A DNA stretch of 24,000 bases, from positions 147,268 to 171,267 of the forward strand of contig NZ_FNHQ01000001.1 in NCBI RefSeq assembly GCF_900103535.1. Reading direction: 5' to 3'. Shown piece after piece: positions 6,946-24,000 of the stretch (its first letter is position 1; every line of letters begins with the position of its first letter). The stretch is from Megasphaera paucivorans (GTDB lineage: Bacteria > Bacillota > Negativicutes > Veillonellales > Megasphaeraceae). Below the pieces are notes generated by a model. It had not been told where the DNA came from and ran no database searches. It worked only from the letters and a program-made list of their open reading frames with translations. Made by a program: the position numbers and the translations under genes.

Positions 6946-6953
6946 GGCTCCTC

Positions 6954-7181
6954 CTATACAATATCTACTGATACTTTTTTATCAGCCTTCACTGCCGCAG
7001 CTTTTACAACCAGGCGTATTGCTTTTGCAATCTTTCCCTGCTTGCCGATAACTTTCCCCATATCTTCCGGGGCGACATGAAGCTCATACACTTCGAGGCC
7101 TTTCTTTTGATTCTTCGTAACTGTAACTGCTTCCGGGCGTTTCACCAACGCTTTTGCAATACATGCAATTAATTCTTCCAT
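6954..7181 (-). CDS. ylqC: KH-domain RNA-binding protein (YlqC/UPF0109 family)
   Basis: It carries the KH motif VIGKQGKIAKAIRLV and sits in the conserved position after rpsP. I prefer the ATG at 7181 (MEELIACIAKALV..., GAGG upstream) to the GTG at 7196. Confidence 0.85.
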   Translation of the reverse strand: MEELIACIAKALVKRPEAVTVTKNQKKGLEVYELHVAPEDMGKVIGKQGKIAKAIRLVVKAAAVKADKKVSVDIV

Positions 7182-7196
7182 AGCAATCAGCCTCAC

Positions 7197-7463
7197 TTAC
7201 TTTTTAGACTCTTCAAACTTAGCCATAATACCGGCTTTTTTGAAAAGAGAACGAATCGTATCGGTCGGTTGTGCACCTTTGCCGAGCCATTCTACAGCAG
7301 TTTCAACATCGACATTCAAAGATTCTATGCCTTTAGCAGGATCATACTGACCTAAGGTAGCAACAGGACGACCATTATTGCGGGCATTGTGAGAATCAGC
7401 AACAACAACGCGATAAACCGGGTTCTTTTTAGCACCTAAACGAGCTAAACGAATTTTAATCAT
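7197..7463 (-). CDS. rpsP: 30S ribosomal protein S16
   Basis: MIKIRLARLGAKKNPVYRVVVADSHNARNNGRPVATLGQYDP is the canonical bS16 sequence. A GAGGAGGTG RBS is present. Confidence 0.98.
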   Translation of the reverse strand: MIKIRLARLGAKKNPVYRVVVADSHNARNNGRPVATLGQYDPAKGIESLNVDVETAVEWLGKGAQPTDTIRSLFKKAGIMAKFEESKK

Positions 7464-7504
7464 TACATTTCACCTCCTCAACGTAATATCCTCACTATCG
7501 AGGC

Positions 7505-8860: not shown

Positions 8861-8878
8861 GGGGATCTCCTTTTATCA

Positions 8879-9208
8879 TCAAATATCCAAATGATGTAAG
8901 ATATGTTTTGCTTTCTCTATCTGCACTGCATCACCCTGTTCAAGCAGTGACACCGCTTCCGATAAGCCTGTCCGCAGCGTATCGATGCGTTCCAGCAAAT
9001 GTAACCGTCGTTCATATTCTTCCAACGCGTTTCCGGCACGATGCAACATATCATAAACACCTTGTCTTGAAATATGAAGTTCTTCACCGATTTCTGCTAA
9101 CGACAGATCCATGAAAAAATACAGCTCCATACAACGATGCTGCCGCTCTGTAAGCAGCGGCCCATATACATCAAGAAGCCGTCCCTTGCGGACAATATCC
9201 TCTAACAT
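8879..9208 (-). CDS. ylxM: YlxM/UPF0122 putative DNA-binding protein (sigma-70 region-4-like HTH)
   Basis: 109 aa. LLTERQHRCMELYFFMDLSLAEIGEELHISRQGVYDMLHRA is the YlxM HTH, and the gene lies immediately upstream of ffh as in Bacillus. Confidence 0.9.
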   Translation of the reverse strand: MLEDIVRKGRLLDVYGPLLTERQHRCMELYFFMDLSLAEIGEELHISRQGVYDMLHRAGNALEEYERRLHLLERIDTLRTGLSEAVSLLEQGDAVQIEKAKHILHHLDI

Positions 9209-9243
9209 ACCTTCACCGCCTCATGACAATTGTGCATATTGTC

Positions 9244-9272
9244 AGTATACAGCAGCTCCTTTTATCTGTCAA
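9244..9272 (-). promoter_or_regulatory. Sigma-A-type promoter of the ylxM-ffh operon
   Basis: The minus strand has TTGACA (9267-9272), a 17-nt spacer and TATACT (9244-9249), 36 nt upstream of the ylxM ATG. Confidence 0.6.
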
Positions 9273-9470
9273 GTATTTTTACTTGTCAATGCTATTTTTG
9301 TTCGTATAGATATACGTTGTTCACATATGTACACAAACTGTTCAAATCATACAATTTATTTCTATATTAATTGAAAATTCGACAATGACAACATAAATAT
9401 TATGCGTTATAATTATATTAAATGTGTACTCGTATATACAATATATCGGAAGGGGAAAACAAAATAAGCT

Positions 9471-10466
9471 ATGAATACTAAGCAATTACAATATTTTATC
9501 GCCGCTGCAGAAAATGAAAGTTTTACAAAGGCGGCTCAACAATTTCATATTACCCAAACAGCCATCACACAGCAAATCAAATCGTTGGAAGATCAACTGC
9601 AAGTTATGCTGTTCACCCGGATTAACCACCGCGTCGTGCTAACACAAGCAGGCCGTTATTTTCTCAAAGAAAGCCGTGCACTGGTATATACACTCGATAA
9701 ATCGGTCGATCAGGTCCGTCTCATCGGCAAAGGCATTTCCGGTTCCCTGCGAATCGGCTGGATCACCGGTTTTGAACAAGCACCGCTGCATCTGCTGATC
9801 CAGCGGTTTCACGAGTCGCATCCGCAGATATCACTGCAGTTAGAACGCAACAGCGCCGTGAATTTATATGACAAACTGCAAAACAACGACTTAGATCTGG
9901 TTTTTAACATCCGTTTTGATATCGGCCGTTACAAAAATGTTTTACAACTCCCTATTCATGAATTTCCCGTTGTCGCCGTTCTCCCTAGTTTTCATCCGCT
10001 GACGAACAAAAAATATTTATTCCGTGATGATCTGCGTGCTCAGCCCTTTATCGTAAGCCGCACAGGGGAAACCATTACCGACCAAAATGAGTCGATCAGC
10101 CGGTATATGACAGCAAACATCAAATATGGGCAAATCTATTATGCGAATGACACCGAGACCATGATGCTAATGGTTTCCGCCGGTTTGGGTATTTCCATTG
10201 TTCCTTCTTATATGATTCCCGCTATTAATAATAACCGTATCAAAACCCTTCCCATTCGCGGCATCAACATGAAAGCCGAAATTATTACTGCCTGGCTGGA
10301 TGATACAGACAACCCATCCCTGCCTCTGATGATTCAAACCATAAAAGATTGGAAACGGATTATCGGCTATGTTCCGAAACAGAAAAAAACACATCCCAAT
10401 GTAACAGATACGGGAACCTTATCCCGTAATTTAATTAATCATAAAAAGACAAATCCCAGATATTAA
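9471..10466 (+). CDS. LysR-family transcriptional regulator
   Basis: The N-terminal HTH is MNTKQLQYFIAAAENESFTKAAQQFHITQTAITQQIKSLEDQL, followed by a LysR substrate-binding-type body. At 331 aa it has a roughly 30-aa basic tail that runs into the terminator stem. Confidence 0.9.
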   Translation: MNTKQLQYFIAAAENESFTKAAQQFHITQTAITQQIKSLEDQLQVMLFTRINHRVVLTQAGRYFLKESRALVYTLDKSVDQVRLIGKGISGSLRIGWITGFEQAPLHLLIQRFHESHPQISLQLERNSAVNLYDKLQNNDLDLVFNIRFDIGRYKNVLQLPIHEFPVVAVLPSFHPLTNKKYLFRDDLRAQPFIVSRTGETITDQNESISRYMTANIKYGQIYYANDTETMMLMVSAGLGISIVPSYMIPAINNNRIKTLPIRGINMKAEIITAWLDDTDNPSLPLMIQTIKDWKRIIGYVPKQKKTHPNVTDTGTLSRNLINHKKTNPRY

Positions 10467-10486
10467 TATCTGGGATTTGTCTTTTT
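10443..10486. terminator. Bidirectional rho-independent terminator between convergent genes
   Basis: AAAAAGACAAATCCCAGATA-ttaa-TATCTGGGATTTGTCTTTTT is a perfect 20-bp palindromic stem flanked by A and T runs. The LysR stop codon lies in the loop. Confidence 0.85.
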
Positions 10487-10517
10487 ATGACGGTATCTCA
10501 TTCTTTTATAGATCGGA

Positions 10518-11693
10518 TCAATGATGGAACAGGCGCAATCCGGTCATGGCCATGGCAATGTCATATTTATCACAAGTTTCAATGACATTATCATCCCGGA
10601 TAGAACCGCCTGCCTGCGCAATATAATCGACGCCGCTGCGATGAGCTCGTTCAATATTGTCACCAAACGGGAAAAATGCATCGCTTCCCAAGGCAACACC
10701 ATGAAGCTGTGCAATCCACGCCTTCTTTTCTTCTCTGCTTAAAGGTTCCGGTTTCTCTGTAAAAAGGTTCTGCCAGACGCCCTCCGCCAACACATCTTCA
10801 GCATCATCAGAAATATATACATCAATTGTATTGTCCCGATCAGGCCGGCGAATATTTTCTTTAAACGGCAGCGACAGTACCTTGGGATTTTGACGAAGCC
10901 ACCAAACATCTGCCTTGTTCCCAGCCAGACGAGTACAGTGAACGCGAGACTGCTGCCCCGCACCAACGCCGATCGTCATGCCATCCTTTACATAACAAAC
11001 AGAATTAGACTGTGTATATTTCAAAGTGATGAGTGCCACGAGTAAATCTCGTTTCGCCGCCGCAGGAATATCTTTGTTTTTTGTCGGCCGATTTTCAAAA
11101 AGATCGTCCGTAATTTTTACATTATTCCGTTCTTGTTCAAAGGTTACGCCGTATACTTCCTTGCTTTCTATACCAGCCGGTACATACGCCGGATCAATTT
11201 TCAGCACGCAATAGGTTCCCTTGCGCTTGGATTTTAAAATTGCCAAGGCTTCCTCCGTATATCCGGGAGCAATCACACCATCAGAAACTTCACGTTTCAA
11301 GAGCGTCGCTGTTTCTGCATCACACATATCGGACAGCGCGACAAAATCACCATAGGAACTCATACGATCTGCCCCGCGTGCACAAGCATACGCACAAGCC
11401 AGCGGAGATAACTGCAAATCATCTACATAATATATCTTTTTAAGCACATCGCTCATACCGGCAGCTACTGCGGCTCCGGCAGGACTGACATGCTTAAAGG
11501 AGGCCGCAGCAGGAAGCCCCGTTGCTTCTTTTAATTCTTTGACCAGCTGAAAACTGTTAAATGCATCCAGTAAATTAATATAGCCGGGACGTCCATTCAT
11601 TACTTCAACAGGCAGTTCGCTGCCATCCTTCATATACACCCTGGCTGAGGCTTGATTTGGATTACAGCCATATTTTAATTGCAGTTCCTTCAT
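10518..11693 (-). CDS. purH: AICAR transformylase (PurH-like, AICARFT domain only, with no N-terminal IMP cyclohydrolase/MGS domain)
   Basis: 391 aa. LKYGCNPNQ..., FKHVSPAGAA, GVGAGQQSRVHCTRLA, ALGSDAFFPF and the C-terminal GLRLFHH match the C-terminal half of PurH. The protein starts directly in the transformylase domain. A GGGAGG RBS is present. Confidence 0.9.
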   Translation of the reverse strand: MKELQLKYGCNPNQASARVYMKDGSELPVEVMNGRPGYINLLDAFNSFQLVKELKEATGLPAAASFKHVSPAGAAVAAGMSDVLKKIYYVDDLQLSPLACAYACARGADRMSSYGDFVALSDMCDAETATLLKREVSDGVIAPGYTEEALAILKSKRKGTYCVLKIDPAYVPAGIESKEVYGVTFEQERNNVKITDDLFENRPTKNKDIPAAAKRDLLVALITLKYTQSNSVCYVKDGMTIGVGAGQQSRVHCTRLAGNKADVWWLRQNPKVLSLPFKENIRRPDRDNTIDVYISDDAEDVLAEGVWQNLFTEKPEPLSREEKKAWIAQLHGVALGSDAFFPFGDNIERAHRSGVDYIAQAGGSIRDDNVIETCDKYDIAMAMTGLRLFHH

Positions 11694-11708
11694 CGTGAAT
11701 TACCTCCC

Positions 11709-11810
11709 AAAAAAATAAATGCCGACACCTCTGGAATCATTGCCCAGACGGTCGGCTTTTCTTAGTCATGCTCCCCGTGGTCATTCCACTTCCGTCAGTC
11801 ACATGAACTC
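11709..11810 (-). promoter_or_regulatory. ZTP riboswitch (pfl motif) with an intrinsic-terminator expression platform
   Basis: The minus strand reads UCAUGUGACUGACGGAAGUGGAAUGACCACGGGGAGCAUGA-uaagaaaag-CCGACCGUCUGGGCA. This matches the pfl consensus blocks GUGACUGGCG...GG..CC.CCGGGGAGC and CCG..CGCCUGGGCA. The GACG/CGUC pair replaces the consensus GGCG/CGCC and keeps the pseudoknot pairing. The 3' sub-domain is shared with the terminator GCCGAC..TCTGG-loop-CCAGA..GTCGGC followed by a T run. Confidence 0.85.
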
Positions 11811-11818
11811 ATGCATAA

Positions 11819-11848
11819 ATTATACCTTTGAAAAACAAACTTTGTCAA
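11819..11848 (-). promoter_or_regulatory. Near-consensus sigma-A promoter driving the ZTP riboswitch and purH
   Basis: The minus strand has TTGACA (11843-11848), an 18-nt spacer and TATAAT (11819-11824). Confidence 0.75.
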
Positions 11849-11865
11849 TGAAAAAATAGCATCTA

Positions 11866-12681
11866 TCACGACAGTTCGATGACATCCAAATCATCAGGAA
11901 CATATAGTCCCCCATCGTAGTACATGGTTCCCTCTGCCGTATATTGCGCCTTACGCCCTGCCAGGTCCGTATCTTCCGTATGATATAAAACCAAATTGCT
12001 GCACTGCAAGGCCGCCGCCGTTTCACAAGCTTCTTTTACCGTACTATGATGTTTCTCATACGGCTTAAATCGTGTACGGTCACGGTACAGACAAAAAGCT
12101 TCTGCTAACAGCCAGTCACTATGCTCTGCATAGATACGGGAATGTTCGTTAAACGGCTCATCCCCCAGGCAGGTAAGTTTCTTTCCGTCAGGTAACTGCA
12201 ACCGGTAGCCGAATTGTTTTGCCTTTGTAGACAAAATATCGAAAGCCTGTATATCCATTCCCAAAACAGAAAACCGTGTACCATCTTTTATTTCATGGAT
12301 ATAAATTCCGTTATCAATTTTCGCCTTATGTTTTCCCGTTAATGTCAAATCACAAATAACACGCAGCATATGCGCCGCTTCATCATGGCAGTAGATATGA
12401 AAGTCTCCCTCATAACTGCCTGCCAGCATATACATGGCAATGCGCCGAATAACCCAGACGACTCCCAGGATATGATCGGTATGCCCATGCGTGACAAACA
12501 AATGATGCAGCCGCGGATACGCAACCTGAGCAGCCTTCAGCTGCTTCAATATTCCGTTGCCCCCGCCGGCATCGGTAAGAAAGCAATCGCCCGCTGCATT
12601 CTGTATAACAAAACACGTGTTGTAGCATTCTGTTACCATAGCACAACCGGTTCCCAGCATAATTAATTTTTCCTTAGCCAT
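11866..12681 (-). CDS. MBL-fold metallo-hydrolase (RNase Z-like or phosphodiesterase-like superfamily member)
   Basis: It carries the HxHxDH motif VTHGHTDHILG after LIMLGTGCA...FLTDAGGG. I prefer the ATG at 12681 (GAGGAG upstream) to the TTG at 12720. Confidence 0.8.
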   Translation of the reverse strand: MAKEKLIMLGTGCAMVTECYNTCFVIQNAAGDCFLTDAGGGNGILKQLKAAQVAYPRLHHLFVTHGHTDHILGVVWVIRRIAMYMLAGSYEGDFHIYCHDEAAHMLRVICDLTLTGKHKAKIDNGIYIHEIKDGTRFSVLGMDIQAFDILSTKAKQFGYRLQLPDGKKLTCLGDEPFNEHSRIYAEHSDWLLAEAFCLYRDRTRFKPYEKHHSTVKEACETAAALQCSNLVLYHTEDTDLAGRKAQYTAEGTMYYDGGLYVPDDLDVIELS

Positions 12682-12723
12682 GTCAAAAAAGCTCCTCTTC
12701 CTGATTGTAATCTCTGCCAAACG

Positions 12724-13560
12724 CTATGGCTTACTTGGTACAATACCATGAATCGTTATTCTCAAAACATCGACAGACATGCCGGTAGTATATTCGACCT
12801 CATGTTGAAGCGCGTCCTTGACTTGGTGCATTAAGGCTCTGACATTTTCGCCGTACAAAATCGTGACGGACAGCATGACATCAATGCCATTTCCTACATC
12901 TTGCGTGCTTTTTCCTACTTTCACCTTGTTTACTCCGGCAATGCCGTGAATACCGGTTAAACTATGCTGAATCAAATGCTGCAATACATCGTCCGTAAAA
13001 GTCAATTTCCCATAATAACTAAATACAGGGCGTACGACAGAACGTTCATACGTTTCCTCTGATTTCCTGCCGTTTTTTTTCTTAAAAAATGAACGGATAG
13101 ATCCCAGCAGATAGCCTCTAAAATGAGACTTCAATTCCATTGTCGGAACAGGAATTACATGTTTTCCTTCTCTGACGCGTATCATATGGGCTTTGGATAT
13201 TTCTTCAGCAGAGGAAATTTCTTCTATGTGGATAAACGCCTCAGGTTCAGGAATCGCAAGCATTTCTGCAATCTTCCGCACCATATGCACGGAAGTCCCT
13301 AACACCAAAAGTTTCTCCGGCTGGATAGTTGCCAGTGCTTTCTGTACCTCGCCCGCCTGCGCTGCATCAGAAAAAATAGCGCGTCGTGTCGCCTTCAGCT
13401 GATTTGTTTCTTCCTTGGCCGAACGTCCGGCAATAATTTTATTCTGATAAATCAAGATCCCGTCATCAATAATGCAATCTATATCGTTGTCATGTGCTAC
13501 CACCAGTGCATGATGGCTTTTACCTGTTCCAGCCGCACCGATAAACCCTATAACTTTCAT
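12724..13560 (-). CDS. Fusion protein: N-terminal P-loop NTPase-like domain plus C-terminal Asp23/Gls24 (alkaline shock protein)-like domain
   Basis: Walker A MKVIGFIGAAGTGKSH and a CIIDDG (Walker-B-like) motif lie at the N-terminus. The C-terminal roughly 100 aa (GKLTFTDDVLQHLIQHSLTGIHGIAGV...IDVMLSVTILYGENVRALMHQVKDALQHEVEYTTGMSVDVLRITIHGI) follow the Asp23-family pattern. The start overlaps the stop of the PHP gene by 4 nt. Confidence 0.7.
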   Translation of the reverse strand: MKVIGFIGAAGTGKSHHALVVAHDNDIDCIIDDGILIYQNKIIAGRSAKEETNQLKATRRAIFSDAAQAGEVQKALATIQPEKLLVLGTSVHMVRKIAEMLAIPEPEAFIHIEEISSAEEISKAHMIRVREGKHVIPVPTMELKSHFRGYLLGSIRSFFKKKNGRKSEETYERSVVRPVFSYYGKLTFTDDVLQHLIQHSLTGIHGIAGVNKVKVGKSTQDVGNGIDVMLSVTILYGENVRALMHQVKDALQHEVEYTTGMSVDVLRITIHGIVPSKP

Positions 13561-14366
13561 TTTTTTCTCCTGTATTCAAGTAATGTATGCAGCCGTTCCG
13601 ATGGAACATAAAACTGTCCCACTACTTCGGGAAATCTTCCCGGAACACCATGAAAATCAGAACCGCCGCTGATAAGCCAATGCCGCGTTTTCGCAATTTC
13701 CATAAACTCGTTTTCCCGTCCCCAGTTTTTGGGATGAAAAACTTCAATACCATCAAATGCATAGGGAAGCACAGCCTGCAGATTATGCTGAATCAGTCCC
13801 GGATGTGCGAGAACAGCCACTCCGCCAGCCTCATGTATCAGCTCAATACATTCCTCGATCGTACAGCGCTGATACGGTACATACGCCGGAGCACCTCGAT
13901 GCAGCACCTCTTGGAACACGTCTGCAATCGTTGCAAAGTAACCCTTTTCAATAAGCATTCGTGCAATATGCGGCCGTCCCACCGCCACGCCCTGCTTGAT
14001 CAGTCCTTCGAGCGGAGTGCGATCCAATTCATATCCAAGCCCAGCCAATCTATCCACGATTTGCAATGCCCGTTCCAATCTGCGCTGATGAAACGTCTGA
14101 CAATATTCCGCTATCGCTTTATGCTCCGTATGGATATAATACCCTAAAACATGAATATCCTCACCATTATATTCCGTGCTGATTTCAATACCTCGTATGA
14201 CGCTGACCGACGAAGAAACGACACAAGGATGAGAATACGCCTCTACCGTATCGTGATCGGTAATAGAAATTTCACCGAGTTGGGCAGTCTCTGCCATCGT
14301 TAGGAGTTCTTCCGGCGTATACACCCCATCTGAGCACGATGTGTGCATATGTAAATCAACATTCAT
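13557..14366 (-). CDS. PHP-domain metal-dependent phosphoesterase (TrpH/YciV-like)
   Basis: MNVDLHMHTSCSDG...ISITDHDTV...VLAHP...GGSDFHG are the PHP-family metal-ligand motifs. The start overlaps the pepA stop by 4 nt. Confidence 0.88.
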   Translation of the reverse strand: MNVDLHMHTSCSDGVYTPEELLTMAETAQLGEISITDHDTVEAYSHPCVVSSSVSVIRGIEISTEYNGEDIHVLGYYIHTEHKAIAEYCQTFHQRRLERALQIVDRLAGLGYELDRTPLEGLIKQGVAVGRPHIARMLIEKGYFATIADVFQEVLHRGAPAYVPYQRCTIEECIELIHEAGGVAVLAHPGLIQHNLQAVLPYAFDGIEVFHPKNWGRENEFMEIAKTRHWLISGGSDFHGVPGRFPEVVGQFYVPSERLHTLLEYRRKK

Positions 14367-15814
14367 GGCTGCCCTCCTTTCAGAAGTTCCAATACCGTTT
14401 TGATTCCAACCCCCGTAGCACCAAAAAATCCGGTTTCATCTTTTTGTTCACAGAAGGCAGTTCCGGCAATATCAATATGAGCCCAGGCAACCCCCGGACG
14501 AATAAACTGCTTAATAAATAATCCCGCAGTAATCGCCCCGGCGTTACGGCCGCCTGTATTTTTCAAATCTGCTACCTCACTATGCAGCAGGGACTCGTAT
14601 TCCCGATCTGCCGGCAGCTGCCATACCCGTTCATTCATGCGGGCAGCTCCTTCAAAAATATGGTTGATCCACTGCTGATCATTCCCAATAACACCGGAAC
14701 GAACCGTCCCCAGTGCCGTTACACAAGCTCCGGTCAAAGTCGCCAAGTCTATAACCTTCGTCGCACCCAGTTTCTGGGCATAGGTCACCCCGTCAGCCAA
14801 AACAAGCCGGCCTTCGGCATCGGTATTCTTGATTTCCACCGTTTTGCCGCTTAACATCGTAATAATATCATCCACATGGAACGACATGCCGGAGGGGACA
14901 TTCTCAGCCATCGGCATGACAGCCATCACATTAACCGGATATTTCAGCAACATCAATGCCCGAATAACACCTAACGCCGTAGCAGCTCCTGCCATATCGG
15001 ACTTCATGAACTCCAGATTTTCATGGTCCTTCAGCGACAATCCACCGCTGTCATAGGTAATTCCCTTGCCGACAACAGCCAATTTATCCCGGCTTTCCGT
15101 ATTGCCGGTGTACGTGACCGTTACCATTTGGGGATTATTCATACTTCCCTTTCCCACAGCCAGAAGCCCGCCCATTTTTAACTTTTCCAGCTGCCATTTA
15201 TTCAAAGTTTCTACCGTAATATTTTCGCTCTTGCACAACGCCGCAGCAATATCGGAAAACTTGCGGGGAGTCAGTTCATTCGGTGGCATATTGACGAGAT
15301 CCCTCGCTGTTTTGATACCCTCATAAATAGCGGTATACACATAACACATCATGTTCAGCTCTTTAACATCCTCTGTAGAAGTCACGAGATTGACCATGGG
15401 TACAAGATGGGATTTTGTGTTTTTCTTATAATGATTAAACTCATAATTGCGAAACAACAGTCCATCGATCAATGTCGGTATATCTGCCTCCAACGTATCC
15501 ACCAAAACTGCCAACTCGGAAACACCCCACGCCATGGCAGCTGCCATTATTTTACGAGCAATACGGAAATCATCAGCCTGCCCGTAAGGATAGGGCTTTT
15601 TACCGATACCGACAAGAATATAATTCTTTACTTTTTCTTCATCAATCAGAGGAAACACAGACACAGACGGATACTCTAAAAGCTCCGGATGTCGGTCTAC
15701 ATATATGCGAAGCTTCTCGCTATCCTTTTTCGGAATTTGTGTCAACACCCGCATCCGGTTATCCACACCGACGGCAACATTATCCAAGCTGCCACTGCCA
15801 TTACAAGTAATCAT
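14363..15814 (-). CDS. pepA: Leucyl aminopeptidase (M17 family)
   Basis: 483 aa. VGKGITYDSGGLSLK and the M17 signature NTDAEGRLVLAD are present. A GGAGGG RBS lies 6 nt upstream of the ATG at 15814. Confidence 0.95.
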   Translation of the reverse strand: MITCNGSGSLDNVAVGVDNRMRVLTQIPKKDSEKLRIYVDRHPELLEYPSVSVFPLIDEEKVKNYILVGIGKKPYPYGQADDFRIARKIMAAAMAWGVSELAVLVDTLEADIPTLIDGLLFRNYEFNHYKKNTKSHLVPMVNLVTSTEDVKELNMMCYVYTAIYEGIKTARDLVNMPPNELTPRKFSDIAAALCKSENITVETLNKWQLEKLKMGGLLAVGKGSMNNPQMVTVTYTGNTESRDKLAVVGKGITYDSGGLSLKDHENLEFMKSDMAGAATALGVIRALMLLKYPVNVMAVMPMAENVPSGMSFHVDDIITMLSGKTVEIKNTDAEGRLVLADGVTYAQKLGATKVIDLATLTGACVTALGTVRSGVIGNDQQWINHIFEGAARMNERVWQLPADREYESLLHSEVADLKNTGGRNAGAITAGLFIKQFIRPGVAWAHIDIAGTAFCEQKDETGFFGATGVGIKTVLELLKGGQP

Positions 15815-15992
15815 GTTTATCCCTCCAGCTAATCGCTATCTATATATGCTTATTATACATTTTTCCTACAGATAAAATCAATGAAGGAACCTGCATATTC
15901 GGTTGTTTACTGTATTCTCCTCACTTTTTAGAAAATATACTTGATTTTTTCAACAAAATAGTGTAACATATCTTTTGTGCTCATAAACATAT

Positions 15993-16068
15993 GGACCACT
16001 AGCTCAGCTGGTAGAGCACCTGACTCTTAATCAGGGTGTCCAGGGTTCGAGCCCCTGGTGGTCCACCA
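15993..16068 (+). tRNA. tRNA-Lys (anticodon CUU), with encoded CCA
   Basis: Cloverleaf folded by hand. The acceptor stem is GGACCAC/GTGGTCC and the D stem is GCTC/GAGC. The anticodon stem is CCTGA/TCAGG with loop CTCTTAA. The T arm is CAGGG-TTCGAGC-CCCTG, and the 3' end is ACCA. Confidence 0.95.
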
Positions 16069-16081
16069 TAAAAAGTATGAT

Positions 16082-16119
16082 AACCATGCCGTTTGCGCGG
16101 CATGGTTGTTTTTGTTTTT
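16082..16119 (+). terminator. Rho-independent terminator of tRNA-Lys
   Basis: AACCATGCCG-tttgcg-CGGCATGGTT (10-bp perfect stem) followed by GTTTTTGTTTTT. Confidence 0.85.
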
Positions 16120-16134
16120 AAGTAATATTTCAAT

Positions 16135-16158
16135 CTTTCTACCGCACTTTCTACCGCA
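16135..16158. repeat. Perfect 12-bp tandem direct repeat (2 copies)
   Basis: CTTTCTACCGCA CTTTCTACCGCA, located 16 nt past the tRNA terminator. Confidence 0.9.
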
Positions 16159-16242
16159 ATCAACAAAATTTTGCTTTTAGTTACATTTTTTTCGTGCAAA
16201 AAAGAAGCCCTATGTTTTAATTGGGACCTCTTTTCTATATAA

Positions 16243-16284
16243 TATTTACTATTGATAAATACTACAACTTCTTACATGTCTAAT
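16243..16284 (-). repeat. Decayed relic copy of the last 12 codons plus stop of the giant ORF (left copy of a 42-bp direct repeat)
   Basis: tatttactattgataaatactacaacttcttacatgtctaat matches 17471-17512 at 37 of 42 positions. All 5 differences are transitions, with A/T in this copy. One of them turns the penultimate Gln codon (the first of the two C-terminal Gln) into TAG. Confidence 0.8.
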
Positions 16285-16438
16285 AAAACTCAGAATCTGG
16301 CAGTTTACGCTATAGGGGTTCAAGTTTCTTCACTTGCACCAGACTATACATCAGCTATATTTGTAGATAGTTTTATTATGCCTGACTCCACAATATCTGA
16401 CAGTCTTTGCCCCCGTCTCATAATCGTATGTTAGAAAC

Positions 16439-16465
16439 GCTCCTCGATATTGAAGAGCTTTTTTT
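16439..16465 (+). terminator. Terminator-like hairpin with a T run
   Basis: GCTCCTCG-atat-TGAAGAGC (7 of 8 pairs, including one G-T) followed by TTTTTTT. Nothing credible lies upstream except a 60-aa ORF with no RBS. Confidence 0.4.
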
Positions 16466-16517
16466 ATATACATCAATTTATTTACTAATCGCATCACAAT
16501 ATTATTTTTTTCATTGT

Positions 16518-16546
16518 TTGACTCAATTTGTTTCCAGTGCTACTAT
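16518..16546 (+). promoter_or_regulatory. Sigma-A-type promoter of the racemase gene
   Basis: TTGACT (16518-16523), a 17-nt spacer and TACTAT (16541-16546), 40 nt upstream of the ATG. Confidence 0.55.
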
Positions 16547-16585
16547 ACAAGAAAAATTATAAAATATAGTGAGGACTGATCCAAA

Positions 16586-17281
16586 ATGAAAACAATTGGA
16601 CTTCTTGGTGGTATGAGTTGGGAAAGCACAGTTACGTATTATCAACTTATTAACGAATCAATTAATCAGAAATACGGTGGATCACACTCTGCTAAAATAT
16701 TACTTTACAGTGTTGATTTTCAAGAAATTGAAACCTGTCAAACAACGGGAAATTGGCAACGTATTATCACAATATTAACAGATGCTATCCATTCACTTGA
16801 AAAAGGTGGCGCAGATTTCATCGCAATTTGTTCTAATACTATTCATAAAGTCGTTCCCGAACTTCAATCCTCTACTAAATTACCTATTTTACATATTGTA
16901 GATGCTACAATAGAACAGTTAAAAAAACAGCATATACAATATGCAGCATTACTTGGTACAAAATATACTATGCAACAAGATTTTTACAAAAATAAATTGA
17001 AAAAATCCGGCATACAAGTTTTTCTACCATCAGAAACAGATATGTTGATCGTAAATCAAATAATTTTTGAAGAACTTTGTCATGGAAAAATTTTACCTTC
17101 TTCAAAAAAAGAATACCTTCGCATCATAAGGACTCTCACTAATCAAGGTGCAACAGGAGTTATCCTTGGTTGCACTGAAATTGGTCATCTAATTCATCAA
17201 GAAGATATTTCATTTCCCGTATTTGACACTACTAAAATTCATGTTGAAGCAATAGTACAATATGCACTTAATGATAAATAA
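16586..17281 (+). CDS. ygeA: Aspartate/glutamate racemase-family protein (YgeA-like broad-specificity amino-acid racemase)
   Basis: 231 aa. MKTIGLLGGMSWESTVTYYQLINE..., ICSNTIH and GCTEIG (the two catalytic Cys motifs) are nearly collinear with E. coli YgeA as I remember it. Confidence 0.88.
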   Translation: MKTIGLLGGMSWESTVTYYQLINESINQKYGGSHSAKILLYSVDFQEIETCQTTGNWQRIITILTDAIHSLEKGGADFIAICSNTIHKVVPELQSSTKLPILHIVDATIEQLKKQHIQYAALLGTKYTMQQDFYKNKLKKSGIQVFLPSETDMLIVNQIIFEELCHGKILPSSKKEYLRIIRTLTNQGATGVILGCTEIGHLIHQEDISFPVFDTTKIHVEAIVQYALNDK

Positions 17282-17428
17282 TTATAAAATTTCACGTATT
17301 TGCTTATATATTTTTCCTAAACCACAAATTAAAGAATCCCACCCTTGAATTTATGGTTATTCCTGATATTTATCTTATACATACCCACCTCTGCTAATCC
17401 GAATTAGTTGATAGCACTTTTAAACAGC

Positions 17429-17463
17429 AAAAAGCCCCGTACTATTAAGATACGGAGCTTTTT
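17429..17463. terminator. Bidirectional terminator shared by the racemase gene and the giant ORF
   Basis: AAAAAGCCCCGTA-ctattaaga-TACGGAGCTTTTT (8 of 9 stem pairs) with an A run on one side and a T run on the other. It lies 10 nt from the giant ORF stop. Confidence 0.75.
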
Positions 17464-17470
17464 GACATAG

Positions 17471-17512
17471 TATTTACTGCTGATAAATACCACGACTTCT
17501 TGCATGTCTAAT
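17471..17512 (-). repeat. Right (functional) copy of the 42-bp direct repeat, equal to the 3' end of the giant ORF
   Basis: tatttactgctgataaataccacgacttcttgcatgtctaat encodes ...IRHARSRGIYQQ plus the stop on the minus strand. Confidence 0.8.
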
Positions 17513-20500
17513 CTTTTGTTGTAATACTCGATCTAAAACTGGACGTTCTGTTTCATCGGCAATTGGTAATAATCCTTGTAAGTCTTGCATACTCAGAGCA
17601 TCGGCACTTCGTTCTAATGGTGTTAGTCGCCCTTTACGCAATAACGTCTTATACTCTGCCCTGTTAATATCGCCGTTCCTATACGCATCAGCAAGGCTGC
17701 TTGTTGGTTTACCACCATTTTCTTGCATATCACGCAAAATAGAACGTTTGAGATCTGACTTATCAGATTGAGCTTGTGTCTTAGCACCTGCGGGCATTCG
17801 TGCTTCCACCAATTCAGACATTCGGCGTTCGAGCGGCGATTTATTCACATCAGATGGTGCAGGCGTAACACCAACAAAAGGTAATGCCTTACTTAAGAAA
17901 TCACCGCCTAAATCAGCTTGCCGTTTACCACCTTGTAAAGAATACGGAACGAACTGTGACAGCACGTATTTACCCATTTCTCCGATCTTATCAAGCATGT
18001 TATCATCTTCATTATAAATTTTTGTGCCGTAAAAATCTTTATTCTCAAGCATACTTGCAATCATCGACAACATCGGATGCAGCTTATTGACAAGGGTACG
18101 CCCCGGATGATCGTAATAAGCATACAAATCCTTCATATAAGACGGCAGTTCGACTCTCTGCGTTTTCCCATTCTGATCAAGCATCCCTGTCTGCGGATAA
18201 TACAAATCCTTAATGGATTGTGGGGTTTGACCAGTATAAAGATACTGTGTAACGGCACCTACTAAACCTACCGTAATAGGAAGTGCCAACGCATACGACA
18301 TTTTATATGTCATTTCCGGGTGTCTACCATGAAGCAGATTGTTCATCTGTTCAACAGTGTCAACACCTGCACCCCCCAATTCACGGAAGGTACCTAAGTT
18401 CCAGCCAACAGACCGGACGCTTGCCATCGTTAAGTCTTTCAAAGTTTTATTCCAAAACAGATTGACATAGGCCAATTGTCCCATTCTATTATCAACACTA
18501 TTCCAAATTTTTCCACCAATTTGCCGCATTTCGTCACGCGTCATATTAGGTTTTCTTGTCATTTCATATCGCATTGCATCAGCCCATACCCCCAATTTTT
18601 GACGAGGTACAATATATTCCATAATAGGTTTTGTTGCTTTATCCATAATGGCAAATGGGATACGCCATACTCCGCCTAAATAGTTCTTAGCATTAAATGC
18701 ATCGCTCATCTTATCCCACATACCAGTTCTGTAGAATTTATCCATCTGGACACGACCACCGGAAGCAACCAATGCATCTGCAAGTTTGGCAACTTCTGCT
18801 CCCTGCGTACCCGGTGTATACCATTCCTTCAAAACCTTATTGCCACGCAAAGCATTTTCAACCGGCGCAATGGGGGCATGAAAGAAATCTTTTAATCCTG
18901 AACCAATATCACCATGAGAAACTTTCAAAAATCCTAACGCCACTTTAGATACAGTAGCATCCATGGAAGTAAAACCTAGATGGAATGCGGAAAGTCCTAA
19001 TTGGAACTGATTTAAAATATTAGCTGCTCCCAGATACGATCTATACAAACCCGACATGGGACGGCCATGCGTCCGTAATCCCGGTGATAAGTAGTTGTTA
19101 ATCAATCGTGCTGCTTCCTTTGGCATATAATAATATCCTCTGATGTGTAATCCGCCAATAGGTTTACCGGTTACATCAACCGGTGCACCATATACTGTTG
19201 CAATACGATCATCAATCCTTTCCCAGTTATACGGAATATCTTTAGAGGTAGCTTTAATATATTTGGTAAGTCCACGGGCTTTTGCCTCATTTATAACATT
19301 GTGGGCCATAATATATTTATCCATTTCACGCATTTTAAGCATGGCAATATCCACGGGATTATCACTAACTGGTTTTAGTCCTGATTCTATACCCTGCTTA
19401 GTAGTTGGAATAGAACGTTTCTTCAGAAATGATTTACCACCTTCAAATGGCCGTCTTCCCGCCCACGCTGCAAACAAGTTCCCTGCATGATTAGGATCTT
19501 CCCACATATGCGGAAAGTAATTTACAATAAAATCTTGCAGTTTGCCGGTTCCTAATTGTTGTATAGCTACACGCCGTTCATCCAACATCTTTCTCAACGT
19601 ATAAGCAAATTTCTGCAATTCTGGCGTAGATTGACCTCTGCCGGTTTCAATACGGTTTACAAAATCAAGATTGTCTACTGATGATTGTTTGGAAAAATAA
19701 CTCCGCGCAGTATGGAGTGCATTTTCAGCACGATCAGCTTTCTGTGCCATCTCAGATAAATTTTCACGCATGATATTGGCCATAGTTTTTGCGTTTTCAC
19801 CCGCTGTCGCAGGAGCTAATGTATCTTTGATATCTTTTATGCCATCTGAAATAGTATCTTTAACCGATTGTACAGCTGGCTTTATATCTTGTTCGTTAAG
19901 ATTTTTTAATGGATTATTGGAATCATTAACAGGCACACTTGTTCTCTGTTTAAATGCAGTCATGCCATTGTTTTGCTGCTGATACTGATCTATTAATGAT
20001 TTTACATTATCAATTTTTGACTTTAAAGCCGGATCATTATCTAGACTCTTTTCAAACGCTTTATAATAATTTGGGAATTCTTCTTTTACAAGATCCGGAT
20101 CTGTAAAATACTTCGAGCCAAAAATAGATACCCCTTCACGCCGTGCCTCTAATGGAGTTAAATTTTGCCCTTTTAGTTGGTTAAGTGCTGTATGAATCAA
20201 TTCTGCATTACTCCGCAATTTTAATTTATCATCCACATATTGAGCTACTAACCGGCCATATTTAGACAAGTCAAAACCATTTTTTATTTTACCGGCAGGA
20301 GTAATCGCATTCACGGCCTTTGTGATGTCATCCGGTGTTACGGATTTATCATTAGTTGATTGACCATTATTTTCTCTGATGGAATACTGTCCTGCATTTT
20401 CATTTCTCATATTGACAAGATCTCGTTCGGTTAGTATACTCTGATTAGATAAAGCACTAGATAGTGCAGGACCCACAAGGGTATCTCCTTTGATGGCCCG

Positions 20501-23500
20501 CACCCAATCTAGTGCTTTTGTCTTGTTCGCATATATCAGTTTCCCTGCTTTTAAATTGGCTGCAAACCAATTATAGTTTGGTGTAGACGATCCCTGCTTT
20601 GTACGAGCGTATGCAGTATTAAGCACATTAATAGCATGATGAGCATTATCGTTTTTTTCTAATTGAACAGGAACAACGACACTGGCACCTTGATCAGTTT
20701 TTAACTCCAATGCCAATACAAATTTATTAACATCAGCTGTTTTAAAAACCATAACAGGATCTGCAATTGCTTTCGGTAACTGTCTTATAATATCAGTTGT
20801 CATTCCGTAGTGCTTTGGCTGTAAAACATGTTCAAAAAAGCTTCCATATACGGACAATTCCTTGTCATTTTTGCTAATCATTTGTAAAACCAATGGCATA
20901 TCCATAACTCTATAAAGACGACCATTGTTATTCTCTTTCCATACTTGTTTATCAGCTTTGTCATATGCATCAACAACATTATTCCATTTTGCTATATCTT
21001 GATTCAAGTGTTGTTCCTGTACATCCCGTGTTTTAATATCAAGGTGATCCTGATTAATTGATTTTTGTTCTCCTAAGATACGTACATCATAATTCAATGT
21101 TCCGTCCGTATTAACATATGGTTTCCCTTCACGATCATTGACACCTCGTAATAATTCTGCTACACTGACAGTGTTTAAAGGAGATATCTTCCCACCTTGC
21201 ATACCCATTTGCGGCATGCTTGGGGAGACATCTCCTTTTTGTTGTATCATATCGTAAAACTTAGCATCTCTTATGGTAAATTGATTTGCGTTTTTATCTC
21301 CTTCCTTGGCTACAATTCTAAATCTTACTAATTTGTTGCCATCCTTAACAACGGAGAAAAGTTCAATATAAGGTTTACCACTAGAGTGTCTATCATCTAT
21401 ATGCTTCTCAACATATATTGTATTATTTAAAATATTTTTAATAACTGATAAGGCTTTTCCTCTTGTAGCCAACCCTTGTCTTGACAGATTTGACGAATTA
21501 ATTAAATGCCTGCCATCCGAAACAGAGGCTACCCTTCCCGTACCTTCACTACCAATAATAGTAAATGTTTTTCCAATTAAACTTTTAGCTATTGCCACTT
21601 TTTCTTGATTATTTTTTACATTCACTTTTGGCTGATCTGTTACATCTATAACAGGCACACGTGTATCACCTGTAATATTTTTATTCGTTACAGAGTAATC
21701 CTCATCTTTTATATAGTCTGCCTGCTCACCTTCGCTTTTCCACACTTCATTAGTTTTAATCTTCCGCATCACATTATGAACATTTTCCGTCCCTGTTAAA
21801 ACAACTTTTATTTTGTTTGCGAAGTCAATTAATTTATGATATAACTTACCAAATATACCCTGTGGTTTAGCCATACCGGCATACTTGGAAAATGCATCTG
21901 CCATTACTTCATTAACATTTACGCCTTGTTTTTTTGCAATAGGATCGTAATGATTCAGCATGGCATCTTTTTCACGCCGTGTTAAAGCCATATCCCATGC
22001 CGCATGAAAAGCTTCATGATAAACTGTTCCTTCTCGGCTGCTCTGTGACAATTCCATTAATCCAGAGAGATGATCGAGAGATGTTTCGCGCCACGCCCCT
22101 TCAAGGCTGATGGTTGATTTAGGAGAAACACCATGCGCCAATTTTGCGTTTTCTATTTCTTTGCCGTTCCGTATAATTTGATTTTTAATATCGACTACAA
22201 TTCGTTTACCGTTAGGCATATCAACATTTATCAAATTCCCGTCTTGTGAAAATTCACCGGCAGGAAAAGCTCTTTTAACTTCTGCTGCAACATCATCATA
22301 CGCACGTTTAACTTCCGGATGATTTGTTGGAATCATATGATTCTGTCCGGCAACCTGGTATAAGGTAATACCTTTATCTGTTTTTTCTTGTTCAACAGTA
22401 TCAAAAAAGGCATCAAATGCTTTCCGAATTTCAGGCATTTCTTTTGGCTGTACATAAGGATACCCTTTTTCTCTGTCGCCTTTTACATTTGCTTCCCATG
22501 CCGACGCTGGGACGATATTAGCAAGGTAATCATCTGATTCGCCACGTTCTTTTAACTTATCTACAATATAACTTTCAAAGGCACGAGCATATAATTCTTC
22601 CGGTTTACTCCAATATGGTTTTGAACGGTATTGATCCAATGCTTCTGCCCGTTTCACCATACCTGAATTATAAATAGCTTTGCGAATATCACCCCACTTC
22701 TTTACTATTTCAGGGCGTATTCCTTCAGGCGAATAATATTTGCTGCCTTGTGCTGCTAACCGTACATCAGATGCTGTTGATAAAAATTCATCTTTTTTAC
22801 GTTTTGTTCCAAAGAAGTAATCTAAAGCATGTAACCATTCATGTGCTAAACTTCCTGCACCTTCATTCTTTGTAAGATTGATAACATTATGTAACGGTTC
22901 ATAATGTGCCGCTGCCGGGTGCTTGCCGCCAATACCACGGGCACCAAAGGCAAGTCCTAATTGTCCGTTTAATGACAGCGCTTCTGGATCGACATCAATA
23001 ATATTAGCCATATCACGTAGTGAATCATACGCATTATTTAAGTCCGACTGGCGACGTTTGCCTTCCACCCAATTACCAAATTCAACACCTCTGAATCCAA
23101 ATGCCTTACCGAAAATTTCCGGAGTAACATCTTTGCCCTTTCGATAGTTGGTACCAACACGCTGTTCATTTGCCTCTCTGCGTTCATTTGGCACATACTT
23201 CATCTGCTTCAGCTGTTCTTCTAATTCTGTTGCATGATTGTCACGATAATTAACTGCATCTTTAACGTTCTTGAATCCATCTTTCATCAAAACAACTCGG
23301 TTACCAATTTTTTTACAAATTTCATATTCCTTGGTACCACGGTTTATATAAATTCCAAATGACTGCTTTGTTGTATTATCGGCATTATCTCCCATAATAC
23401 TATCATATTGTTTTTTAAATTTATCAATTACCTGTTGTTCGGTATCACCATCAACAACGGTTTTATGAAAGTGCACCTGCCCTTTTTGTGCTTTTACTAT

Positions 23501-24000
23501 CTCCCATATATGTTTAGGAGGATTATATTCTTTGCCGTCATACATACTATATGTACCTTCTGACAATGTATATTCTTTTAAAGAATGCGCATGCCCGACT
23601 GCTTCATATAATTTGGCATTAGAAACGACATCACGAATACCTTTATGTCCGCTTGAATACAACCTTTTTTCTATTTCATCTCCTTTACCATCCAATATCA
23701 TTTGTGCCATTTTCTTTACAGCATCAACGCCTTGAGCCCAGTATTTTATATCTCTCCGAGGTTTATTGCTAATAGAATCCCGCAATGCATGAACAAGAGC
23801 TATGGCATGTTTATCTGCCCCCGCCTTTATTAATGCATCATATTTTGGTTCTGGAAATGACTTCGATAATGGTTTGGTTTGAGTATCAATCTTATCACTG
23901 TCATCCAATTCTTTTTTATAAGAAGTATATATATCTTTCCGTGCGCCGCCTATTTTTTCGCCAAAATCTTCAATTTTAGTAGTTTTGGATTGTTCATTCT
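17474..24000 (-). CDS. Giant multi-domain protein, at least 2,174 codons in the window with the N-terminus outside it; polyvalent-protein-like, with two HExxH zincin motifs, tandem MuF-C/PBECR-like domains and a hydrophobic C-terminal module
   Basis: A single uninterrupted minus-strand frame. The ORF track starts at the TTG at 23908, but my translation of 23909-23998 in the same frame has no stop (NEQSKTTKIEDFGEKIGGARKDIYTSYKKE-LDDSDK...). Motifs include HEWLH (22829-22843), HEAFH (22004-22018) and the hydrophobic helix SYALALPITVGLVGAVTQYLYT (18233-18298). A terminator follows directly after the stop. Confidence 0.85.
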   Translation of the reverse strand, partial: NEQSKTTKIEDFGEKIGGARKDIYTSYKKELDDSDKIDTQTKPLSKSFPEPKYDALIKAGADKHAIALVHALRDSISNKPRRDIKYWAQGVDAVKKMAQMILDGKGDEIEKRLYSSGHKGIRDVVSNAKLYEAVGHAHSLKEYTLSEGTYSMYDGKEYNPPKHIWEIVKAQKGQVHFHKTVVDGDTEQQVIDKFKKQYDSIMGDNADNTTKQSFGIYINRGTKEYEICKKIGNRVVLMKDGFKNVKDAVNYRDNHATELEEQLKQMKYVPNERREANEQRVGTNYRKGKDVTPEIFGKAFGFRGVEFGNWVEGKRRQSDLNNAYDSLRDMANIIDVDPEALSLNGQLGLAFGARGIGGKHPAAAHYEPLHNVINLTKNEGAGSLAHEWLHALDYFFGTKRKKDEFLSTASDVRLAAQGSKYYSPEGIRPEIVKKWGDIRKAIYNSGMVKRAEALDQYRSKPYWSKPEELYARAFESYIVDKLKERGESDDYLANIVPASAWEANVKGDREKGYPYVQPKEMPEIRKAFDAFFDTVEQEKTDKGITLYQVAGQNHMIPTNHPEVKRAYDDVAAEVKRAFPAGEFSQDGNLINVDMPNGKRIVVDIKNQIIRNGKEIENAKLAHGVSPKSTISLEGAWRETSLDHLSGLMELSQSSREGTVYHEAFHAAWDMALTRREKDAMLNHYDPIAKKQGVNVNEVMADAFSKYAGMAKPQGIFGKLYHKLIDFANKIKVVLTGTENVHNVMRKIKTNEVWKSEGEQADYIKDEDYSVTNKNITGDTRVPVIDVTDQPKVNVKNNQEKVAIAKSLIGKTFTIIGSEGTGRVASVSDGRHLINSSNLSRQGLATRGKALSVIKNILNNTIYVEKHIDDRHSSGKPYIELFSVVKDGNKLVRFRIVAKEGDKNANQFTIRDAKFYDMIQQKGDVSPSMPQMGMQGGKISPLNTVSVAELLRGVNDREGKPYVNTDGTLNYDVRILGEQKSINQDHLDIKTRDVQEQHLNQDIAKWNNVVDAYDKADKQVWKENNNGRLYRVMDMPLVLQMISKNDKELSVYGSFFEHVLQPKHYGMTTDIIRQLPKAIADPVMVFKTADVNKFVLALELKTDQGASVVVPVQLEKNDNAHHAINVLNTAYARTKQGSSTPNYNWFAANLKAGKLIYANKTKALDWVRAIKGDTLVGPALSSALSNQSILTERDLVNMRNENAGQYSIRENNGQSTNDKSVTPDDITKAVNAITPAGKIKNGFDLSKYGRLVAQYVDDKLKLRSNAELIHTALNQLKGQNLTPLEARREGVSIFGSKYFTDPDLVKEEFPNYYKAFEKSLDNDPALKSKIDNVKSLIDQYQQQNNGMTAFKQRTSVPVNDSNNPLKNLNEQDIKPAVQSVKDTISDGIKDIKDTLAPATAGENAKTMANIMRENLSEMAQKADRAENALHTARSYFSKQSSVDNLDFVNRIETGRGQSTPELQKFAYTLRKMLDERRVAIQQLGTGKLQDFIVNYFPHMWEDPNHAGNLFAAWAGRRPFEGGKSFLKKRSIPTTKQGIESGLKPVSDNPVDIAMLKMREMDKYIMAHNVINEAKARGLTKYIKATSKDIPYNWERIDDRIATVYGAPVDVTGKPIGGLHIRGYYYMPKEAARLINNYLSPGLRTHGRPMSGLYRSYLGAANILNQFQLGLSAFHLGFTSMDATVSKVALGFLKVSHGDIGSGLKDFFHAPIAPVENALRGNKVLKEWYTPGTQGAEVAKLADALVASGGRVQMDKFYRTGMWDKMSDAFNAKNYLGGVWRIPFAIMDKATKPIMEYIVPRQKLGVWADAMRYEMTRKPNMTRDEMRQIGGKIWNSVDNRMGQLAYVNLFWNKTLKDLTMASVRSVGWNLGTFRELGGAGVDTVEQMNNLLHGRHPEMTYKMSYALALPITVGLVGAVTQYLYTGQTPQSIKDLYYPQTGMLDQNGKTQRVELPSYMKDLYAYYDHPGRTLVNKLHPMLSMIASMLENKDFYGTKIYNEDDNMLDKIGEMGKYVLSQFVPYSLQGGKRQADLGGDFLSKALPFVGVTPAPSDVNKSPLERRMSELVEARMPAGAKTQAQSDKSDLKRSILRDMQENGGKPTSSLADAYRNGDINRAEYKTLLRKGRLTPLERSADALSMQDLQGLLPIADETERPVLDRVLQQKIRHARSRGIYQQ

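Follow-up and report, generated by a model that had tools for sequence, protein, structure and literature searches.

A giant polyvalent protein gene of probable prophage origin in Megasphaera paucivorans, ending in an uncatalogued C-terminal module

Roughly the last 6.5 kb of a 24,000-nucleotide stretch of Megasphaera paucivorans DNA (assembly GCF_900103535.1, contig NZ_FNHQ01000001.1, forward-strand positions 147,268 to 171,267; the whole stretch is referred to here as the window, and its first letter is position 1) is taken up by a single minus-strand open reading frame (ORF; 17474–24000) of at least 2,174 codons. This giant ORF probably encodes a polyvalent protein that is packaged in the virion, and would be a late, distal gene in a prophage of the podovirus type (SU10-like). 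Proteins of this kind are already known; the C-terminal module is uncatalogued, but the gene does not stand for a new kind of system. An initial annotation, made from the letters of the window, had recognized in it the architecture of the polyvalent proteins of phages and of integrative and conjugative elements (ICEs), and the evidence laid out below supports the first of these two homes.

The frame extends from 23998 down to 17477, giving 2,174 sense codons that are followed by a TAA stop codon at 17474–17476, and translation confirms that it is uninterrupted and still open at the window edge. Over the same interval the two other minus-strand frames contain 138 and 252 stop codons, and the probability of 2,174 stop-free codons at the base composition of the giant ORF is about 3e-73. 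Since the gene lies on the minus strand, the part that falls beyond the window is the N-terminus; the mechanical ORF call (17474..23908) is counted from the first TTG, and residue numbers are given here from the first codon inside the window. The DNA of the ORF is more AT-rich than its flank, as had been noticed, with a GC fraction of 0.385 against 0.446 in the ffh–pepA region (4000–15990). Directly 3′ of the stop codon, on the same strand, a hairpin followed by a T-run (17427..17464) was found by eye and resembles a terminator; the consensus terminator scan did not report it.

Polyvalent proteins were defined by Iyer, Burroughs, Anand, de Souza and Aravind in 2017 (PMC5512222), who proposed that they are delivered together with the invading DNA and are autoprocessed by zincin peptidases. 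Under that definition, which describes 2–15 unrelated globular domains including ones of the LPD type, the giant protein is polyvalent: LPD5, LPD1 and MuF_C score above their Pfam cutoffs, and they are accompanied by two zincin-like regions, an LPD3-like region and the C-terminal module. The attribution to this class in the initial annotation is thus borne out, with LPD5 and LPD1, which it had not named, now added. In its many domains, zincin hubs, LPDs, PBECR/MuF-C domain and probable encoding by a mobile element, the protein resembles those catalogued in that study; it differs from them in a C-terminal module that is matched by no LPD model in the Pfam library used.

The N-terminal block (residues 1–550; 22349..23998, minus strand) opens with the motif DFGEKIGGARKD and holds LPD5, the first zincin-like region and LPD1. 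It is matched by PHROG 616 over residues 3–559 (E 2.2e-115), beginning about 900 positions into that profile. A tblastn search found residues 1–551 in 193 phage records at 37–43% identity, the N-terminal 550 residues are 37–47% identical to the giant proteins of Stx phages and to many other LPD5/LPD1 giants, and the LPD1/LPD5 block also occurs in 429 plasmid records. The point at which the block begins varies among relatives between about residue 1 and about residue 1,500; in complete proteins of about 877 residues some 40 residues precede it, so at least a few dozen N-terminal residues, and possibly many more, are probably missing from the protein as seen in the window.

Within the block, LPD5 occupies residues 153–299 (23102..23542, minus; Pfam PF18799, E 1.5e-49, 168 bits against a cutoff of 27) and LPD1 residues 454–538 (22385..22639, minus; PF18796, E 2.4e-20, above threshold). 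Between and partly overlapping them lies the first zincin-like metallopeptidase region (residues 280–499; 22502..23161, minus), which matches the NCBIfam model CLCA_X with E 5.6e-42 at a sub-threshold score (143.9 bits against a cutoff of 260) and contains the motif HEWLH at residues 386–390 (nucleotides 22829–22843). The second zincin-like region (about residues 573–771; 21686..22282, minus) lies outside the block and carries HEAFH at residues 661–665 (nucleotides 22004–22018), which upholds the earlier report of two HExxH motifs. No Pfam model matches it, and it is delimited by conservation in homologues: the HExxH and a Glu-containing helix about 45 residues downstream are kept in three homologous copies (one in protein P0122 and two in P0121), and homologous segments are found in viral and metagenome loci (L104–L107 and L110–L113). 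The Pfam MPTase-PolyVal model likewise has no match in the giant protein, so that the zincin hub domain characteristic of polyvalent proteins is present at the level of motifs and not of models.

Two tandem MuF_C/PBECR-type domains had been proposed for the stretch that follows, and one of them stands. The MuF_C domain at residues 1062–1162 (20513..20815, minus; PF18819, E 4.5e-17, 62.5 bits against 27.6), a domain also found in the phage Mu head protein MuF, is a predicted effector of the ribonuclease-fold PBECR type; PBECR domains are described in PMC5512222. The supposed second copy is ruled out: residues 780–1000 and 1000–1250 share no pairwise similarity, and the former contains only an LPD3-like alpha+beta region (residues 805–903; 21290..21586, minus), a weak assignment to PF18798 (E 0.02–0.026) whose 15 bits do not reach the gathering score of 27. 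A linker (residues 1250–1369; 19892..20251, minus), recognized by composition, then separates the last Pfam domain from the C-terminal module; its distal part, at about residues 1320–1370, is rich in N, Q, D and K, in agreement with the Q/N/K-rich linker described before. The Pfam scan found no ArdC-N, primase or relaxase domain in the protein. Among the unitigs (Logan) of the sequencing run SRR4136329, two (L011 and L003) end at 16053/16086, the 3′ end of the tRNA-Lys gene described below, and at 21198 inside the giant gene; the latter point falls at about residue 935, after the LPD3-like and before the MuF_C region, and these ends hint at a second sequence path in the sample, for example a variant with another N-terminal half.

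The remainder of the protein is one conserved C-terminal module of about 800 residues (about residues 1370–2170; 17489..19891, minus), delimited by its homologues, its AlphaFold2 model and its position. The initial annotation had seen here a module of some 600 residues with hydrophobic helices that belonged to no known family, and it had put the ORF forward as the window's best candidate for an undescribed function. The absence from catalogued sequence families holds: neither NCBIfam nor PHROGs nor, even at E <= 10, Pfam contains a match to the module. The rest of that description does not, as the module is longer, contains a single moderately hydrophobic 19-residue segment, and recurs at the C-terminus of thousands of phage proteins. 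A word-indexed search returned 307 homologues at E <= 0.001 with 40–58% identity, on contigs that reach about 77 kb and in many cases measure 30–60 kb, and an exhaustive search found the module in 4,249 representatives of 50%-identity clusters from metagenomes, 2,856 of them at E <= 1e-30. It is encoded on 188 IMG/VR viral contigs, and tblastn found it in none of 72,556 plasmid records.

An alignment of 82 members contains 36 invariant columns, and the M. paucivorans protein keeps these invariant residues. The 84 loci compared comprise 80 viral contigs from IMG/VR and four further contigs, and in every one of them the ORF ends with the module; these ORFs range from about 0.6 to more than 4.2 thousand residues. 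Overall, proteins with the module span 0.7–4.7 thousand residues, and some are nearly bare modules of 785–850 residues. The N-terminal extensions scanned in relatives carry Strawberry-notch (Sno)/SNF2 helicase, methyltransferase, MutS_I, RadC, Zeta toxin, ddrB-ParB, sigma-70 region 2, InPase, ART-PolyVal, PBECR1 and SLT transglycosylase domains, and in four viral loci the module is combined with the LPD5/LPD1 block as it is in the window. The sigma-70 region 2 (E 1.2e-7) stands in the giant ORF at 1226–9985 of IMG/VR contig 3300049617_000191 (L028), beside a Zeta toxin and ddrB-ParB and upstream of the same module, and may be an injected transcription factor. Several members (P0001, P0002, P0008, P0020 and P0044) share an insertion of about 100–200 residues at one point, about residue 1607/1608 (window positions about 19177–19180), so an inserted domain is evidently tolerated at that site. 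Just one helix of the module is markedly hydrophobic, at residues 1902–1920 (YALALPITVGLVGAVTQYL; 18239..18295, minus; 1.46 in a 19-residue Kyte–Doolittle window), and this segment corresponds to helix 539–563 of the AlphaFold2 model.

In relatives the module is encoded among phage genes. Upstream of it are found SU10_adaptor, a GP7-type capsid protein, Bbp16 and tail proteins of PHROG 376 and PHROG 394, and downstream a large terminase subunit. The closest relative (P0378, 61% identical in the module) lies in a prophage after genes for SU10_MCP and SU10_adaptor; genes for a GH25 lysozyme and a LexA-like repressor come next, and chromosomal genes after these, a layout with the giant gene near the prophage end that mirrors the window, where the giant gene ends 190 nucleotides from a chromosomal gene. 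Because BLAST clustering of the neighbours in the 80 viral loci gave only small clusters (at most 10 loci), this context was read through PHROG and Pfam profiles, and it places module genes between the tail genes and the terminase or lysis genes of podovirus-like, SU10-type modules. In T7-like phages the internal core proteins gp14–gp16 are encoded after the adaptor and nozzle genes, and gp16 carries an N-terminal lytic transglycosylase. The module genes of the relatives, which follow tail-tube or nozzle genes and precede fibre or terminase genes, have the same position, and some of the relatives likewise begin with a lytic transglycosylase; the module, however, matches no solved chain in sequence or structure, T7 proteins included, so that the likeness is one of role and position.

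AlphaFold2, run on the 82-sequence alignment, predicted a mostly helical fold with a mean predicted local distance difference test score (pLDDT) of 89.7 and a predicted template modelling score (pTM) of 0.88. A Foldseek search of this model against the PDB gave no match, the best E being 0.33 and the entries returned being non-significant membrane transporters and helical bundles, and a profile search of PDB sequences with the module found nothing relevant. The idea of a hydrophobic, transporter-like domain was dropped, given the non-significance of those PDB entries and the single hydrophobic segment. Against BFVD the same model had 48 matches at E <= 1e-3 (best E 1.9e-14), nearly all of them C-terminal pieces of phage polyvalent proteins and two of them named LPD38; a match to the ‘internal virion protein’ of Vibrio phage VP2 was weak (E 7e-5, template modelling (TM) score 0.22).

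The link to LPD38 was pursued in a search with the last 820 residues of one LPD38 protein. The LPD38-type module proved to be conserved over about 800 residues, either alone, as a stand-alone protein of 780–860 residues, or behind variable domains. Pfam LPD38 (PF18857) covers about 190 residues of this unit in LPD38-type proteins (P0135, P0302 and others), and the boundary of the Pfam domain thus understates the real unit, an extent that is new here. The AlphaFold2 model of the LPD38-type module (pLDDT 77) has the same order of long helices as that of the M. paucivorans module, with a small sheet following the first third and a hairpin following the hydrophobic helix. The two models have at least 21 of their top 50 BFVD matches in common, with E down to 1e-9 on the module side, although the TM-scores of the module model against the LPD38-side entries are only about 0.3–0.5. 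Hidden Markov model (HMM) cross-searches between the LPD38-type C-termini and the module family were empty in both directions. Motif correspondences noticed by eye were abandoned as evidence, since hhalign of the sub-region that contains an NKDFYG / N.DF.G motif gave E 0.0096 and the reversed and block-shuffled controls scored equally well or better. With moderate confidence, and by comparison of predicted structures, the module and the LPD38-type module can be regarded as members of one structural superfamily that are unrelated by sequence; the module is not to be filed under Pfam LPD38, and the half of the protein that had seemed unassignable would then be a sibling of the C-terminal module of virion-associated polyvalent proteins.

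LPD38-type giants have been reported as parts of the virion, and one of them as essential. A preprint on phage phi24B describes gp47 (2,811 residues, with LPD5, LPD1, LPD38 and MuF-C) as abundant in virions and invisible in the cryo-electron microscopy map, and puts it forward as an ejection protein carried inside the capsid; gp69 of Burkholderia phage JC1 (4,515 residues, LPD38 at 4195–4401) was found to be virion-associated by mass spectrometry; and knock-down of gp25 (2,198 residues) of Escherichia phage PTXU04 abolished plaque formation. With gp47 and the 933W-type Stx giants of PHROG 616, the M. paucivorans protein shares the block of residues 1–550 (LPD5, zincin and LPD1) at about 37% identity, and with gp47 also a MuF_C domain and a helical C-terminal module of about 800 residues. 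It differs in that gp47 ends in an LPD38-type module, which has no sequence match here, and in that the host of phi24B is E. coli and not a Negativicute. Like the LPD38-type module (JC1 gp69/Bcep22 gp75, PTXU04 gp25), the present module is about 800 residues long, always C-terminal, and found alone or behind variable effectors; unlike it, this branch shows no significant sequence or profile similarity to the other and is absent from the 50,697 deposited phage genomes searched. P1 DarB and the N4 virion RNA polymerase are further giants packed in the head, delivered with the DNA and active early in infection, as is proposed here; they have other domains (methylase and helicase in DarB), and no homology to either was detected.

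Taken with these analogies, several steps can be envisioned for the giant protein. Most likely, the C-terminal module would direct it into the capsid interior and, at infection, would take part in ejection through the tail, much as internal virion proteins do in T7-like phages; it might also help to span the envelope, with its two membranes, of the Firmicute host, a Negativicute. The variable N-terminal payload would then enter the new host with the DNA, and the two zincin peptidases would probably cut it into separate effectors. Once freed, these may act against host defences or, if the PBECR-fold domain is a ribonuclease, against host RNA. LPD5, which Iyer et al. count among the potentially enzymatic LPDs, is a possible further enzyme of the payload.

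Several observations weigh against this reading. Within the window no portal, capsid, terminase or integrase gene lies beside this copy; the window ends inside the gene and its upstream neighbours lie outside, and the prophage, if it is there, could be defective. Whole-protein scans of genome, metagenome and viral contigs yielded distant relatives alone, the protein itself was not among the homologues retrieved, and an exact search with the racemase gene described below gave a 5.1-kb unitig identical to the window. The module was found by tblastn in none of the 50,697 deposited phage genomes, it has no similarity to any solved ejection protein by Foldseek or by sequence profile against the PDB, and its single, weakly hydrophobic helix offers thin support for a membrane conduit. 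As to the kinship with LPD38, the Pfam LPD38 model has no match to the module even at E <= 10, and hhalign of the whole module against the LPD38-type module gave E 0.09, within the range of the reversed and block-shuffled controls; no sequence-level link was found, so the relationship is one of predicted structures and Foldseek matches.

Other explanations have to be set against the same evidence. Polyvalent proteins occur in conjugative elements as well as in phages (PMC5512222), and the giant protein might belong to an ICE or plasmid and be moved with single-stranded DNA through type IV secretion; the N-terminal block, with its plasmid records, and the lack of a visible structural phage gene inside the window would fit. 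The module itself, however, is encoded by none of the plasmids searched and stands on viral contigs amid tail, capsid and terminase genes, the MuF_C domain is that of the MuF protein of phage Mu, and the ArdC-N, primase and relaxase domains that were looked for are missing. To these points can be added that LPD38 was observed solely among polyvalent proteins of the phage type (PMC5512222), an argument that reaches the module through the structural relationship, since its sequence has no LPD38 model match. We regard conjugative delivery as very improbable. Even less credible, and close to refuted, is an assignment to the bacterium's own surface proteins, adhesins or secreted polymorphic toxins, of ordinary chromosomal origin: the protein is very large and domains of the PBECR/MuF type are also known from toxin systems (PMC5512222), but the per-domain searches that recovered LPD5, LPD1 and MuF_C disclosed no repeats and no adhesin or secretion domains, the locus is absent from closely related strains, and each half has its homologues on viral contigs or in phage genomes.

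Two further readings stay closer to a virion-packaged prophage protein and deserve more weight, though neither is likely. The gene may be the survivor of a decayed, non-inducible prophage, its product either no longer made or recruited by the host as a toxin or competition factor. Decay does happen at this locus, as related strains hold short scars of the end of the giant gene together with a 76-residue integrase fragment and the window itself contains a second scar 1.2 kb further left, and the upstream region is beyond the window; yet the preservation of a frame of at least 6.5 kb at 38.5% GC argues for recent or continuing selection, as do domains that all score as intact and a module with every invariant family residue in place, and this possibility seems to us a rather slim one. 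Slightly better placed, if still doubtful, is a variant of the packaging proposal in which the module is an encapsidation tag for the capsid interior or portal that has no role in an ejection channel, leaving the N-terminal domains as the sole cargo. In phage N4 encapsidation depends on a region of the giant virion RNA polymerase (as cited in PMC5512222), and the one weakly hydrophobic helix and the lack of similarity to solved ejection or membrane proteins would be easily accommodated. Against this, 800 residues with some 36 invariant positions are large for a tag, and the nearly stand-alone forms are encoded after the tail genes, at the site of the internal core protein genes of T7-like phages. 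SLT transglycosylase N-termini in relatives, as in gp16 of T7, point the same way. The PTXU04 polyvalent giant gp25 is essential for infection, and the top structural matches to the model of the LPD38-type module include a piece of a PTXU04 protein that may be gp25.

Virion packaging of a prophage-encoded polyvalent protein accordingly remains the reading we prefer, and it invites a broader proposal that we put forward tentatively and consider less likely than not: the module may represent a class of phage genome-delivery protein in its own right, of which no structure has been solved, a chassis for interchangeable anti-host payloads with the LPD38-type module as its sister, and the polyvalent proteins of podovirus-like phages would then be ejection proteins with cargo. 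If this is true, the branch to which the module belongs, with its thousands of cluster representatives, would stand for an uncultured phage group, met here in prophage form in a two-membraned host that can be cultured. Few phage proteins are as large as the polyvalent ones, whose roles have mostly been guessed. New here, alongside the larger LPD38 unit, is a second branch, unrelated in sequence and similar in predicted structure, which abounds in metagenomes but is missing from cultured phages and from the family libraries searched. Members of both branches either stand alone, where internal virion proteins are encoded in the genome, or are fused behind effector domains that can be exchanged, which suggests a rule whereby effector cargo is delivered by fusion to an ejection or core protein. 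In practical terms, a profile of the module would label thousands of giant phage genes now called ‘hypothetical’.

The Ffh, HtpG and racemase proteins of the window match those of M. paucivorans exactly. The initial annotation placed the ORF next to a tRNA gene, and a tRNA-Lys(CTT) gene is indeed present at 15993–16068 on the plus strand (ARAGORN, Rfam), the sole tRNA gene; it lies 1.4 kb from the giant ORF, however, and an Asp/Glu racemase gene (16586–17281, plus; protein WP_091647330) stands between them. To the right of the tRNA gene the region is strain-variable, and relatives lack the giant gene or keep a short scar of it. Related strains with identical pepA are 99.7% identical to the window up to 16073 (L007/L010) and then continue into a different island without the giant gene, which in loci L007–L010 carries SEC-C, GH25 lysozyme, HTH, Fic and SSB genes. 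On other contigs (L014–L019) homology starts at 16065 and covers 16065–17317, the racemase segment, at 91% identity, against 99.7% for the pepA–tRNA segment (14000–16073). The homologies of the two sets of strains overlap by nine nucleotides (16065–16073) at the 3′ end of the tRNA gene, which looks like an insertion-site duplication.

Since the racemase segment is kept at 91% identity in strains that lack the giant gene, the tRNA-Lys gene was rejected as the attachment site of the element that carries it; the break at 16065–16073 is where, in other strains, another island joins. In the L014–L019 relatives the racemase segment is followed by an ORF of 116 residues, a remnant of about 50 nucleotides of the 3′ end of the giant gene, a 76-residue phage-integrase fragment and TerC. 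As their homology ends at 17317 with the scar beyond it, the element with the giant gene, which relatives lack or retain as a scar, appears from these alignments to start between 17317 and about 17440, some 1.3 kb to the right of the tRNA break. The varying presence of the gene among strains and the integrase fragment of the relatives lend indirect support to its origin in a mobile element.

A repeat search and blastn also disclosed an imperfect direct repeat of 55 nucleotides (84% identity), whose right copy (17458..17512) comprises the last 12 codons of the giant gene, its stop codon and 16 nucleotides downstream, and whose left copy (16230..16284), to the left of the racemase gene, is a scar that resembles the 3′ end of the giant gene; the racemase gene is therefore bracketed by the two. 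Similar short scars are present in a related strain (L014, at 5952–6051 and 11117–11219), one of them followed by the 76-residue integrase fragment. Prophages that came and went repeatedly could have left the repeat copies as scars, or the copies could belong to an attachment site. The racemase gene of relatives adjoins an insertion-sequence-type transposase gene (UPF0236) and its left flanks vary, which suggests a mosaic and mobile neighbourhood.

Elsewhere in the window, a ZMP/ZTP riboswitch on the minus strand (11735–11812; Rfam RF01750, 58.7 bits) lies upstream of a short purH-like AICARFT/IMPCHase gene (10518–11693), an expected pairing. A protein of the metallo-beta-lactamase fold encoded at 11866–12720 on the minus strand (13134–13949 in L007) matches the Pfam family Anti-Pycsar_Apyc1, which is named for phage enzymes that degrade cyclic-nucleotide defence signals, and its gene lies in a conserved host operon.

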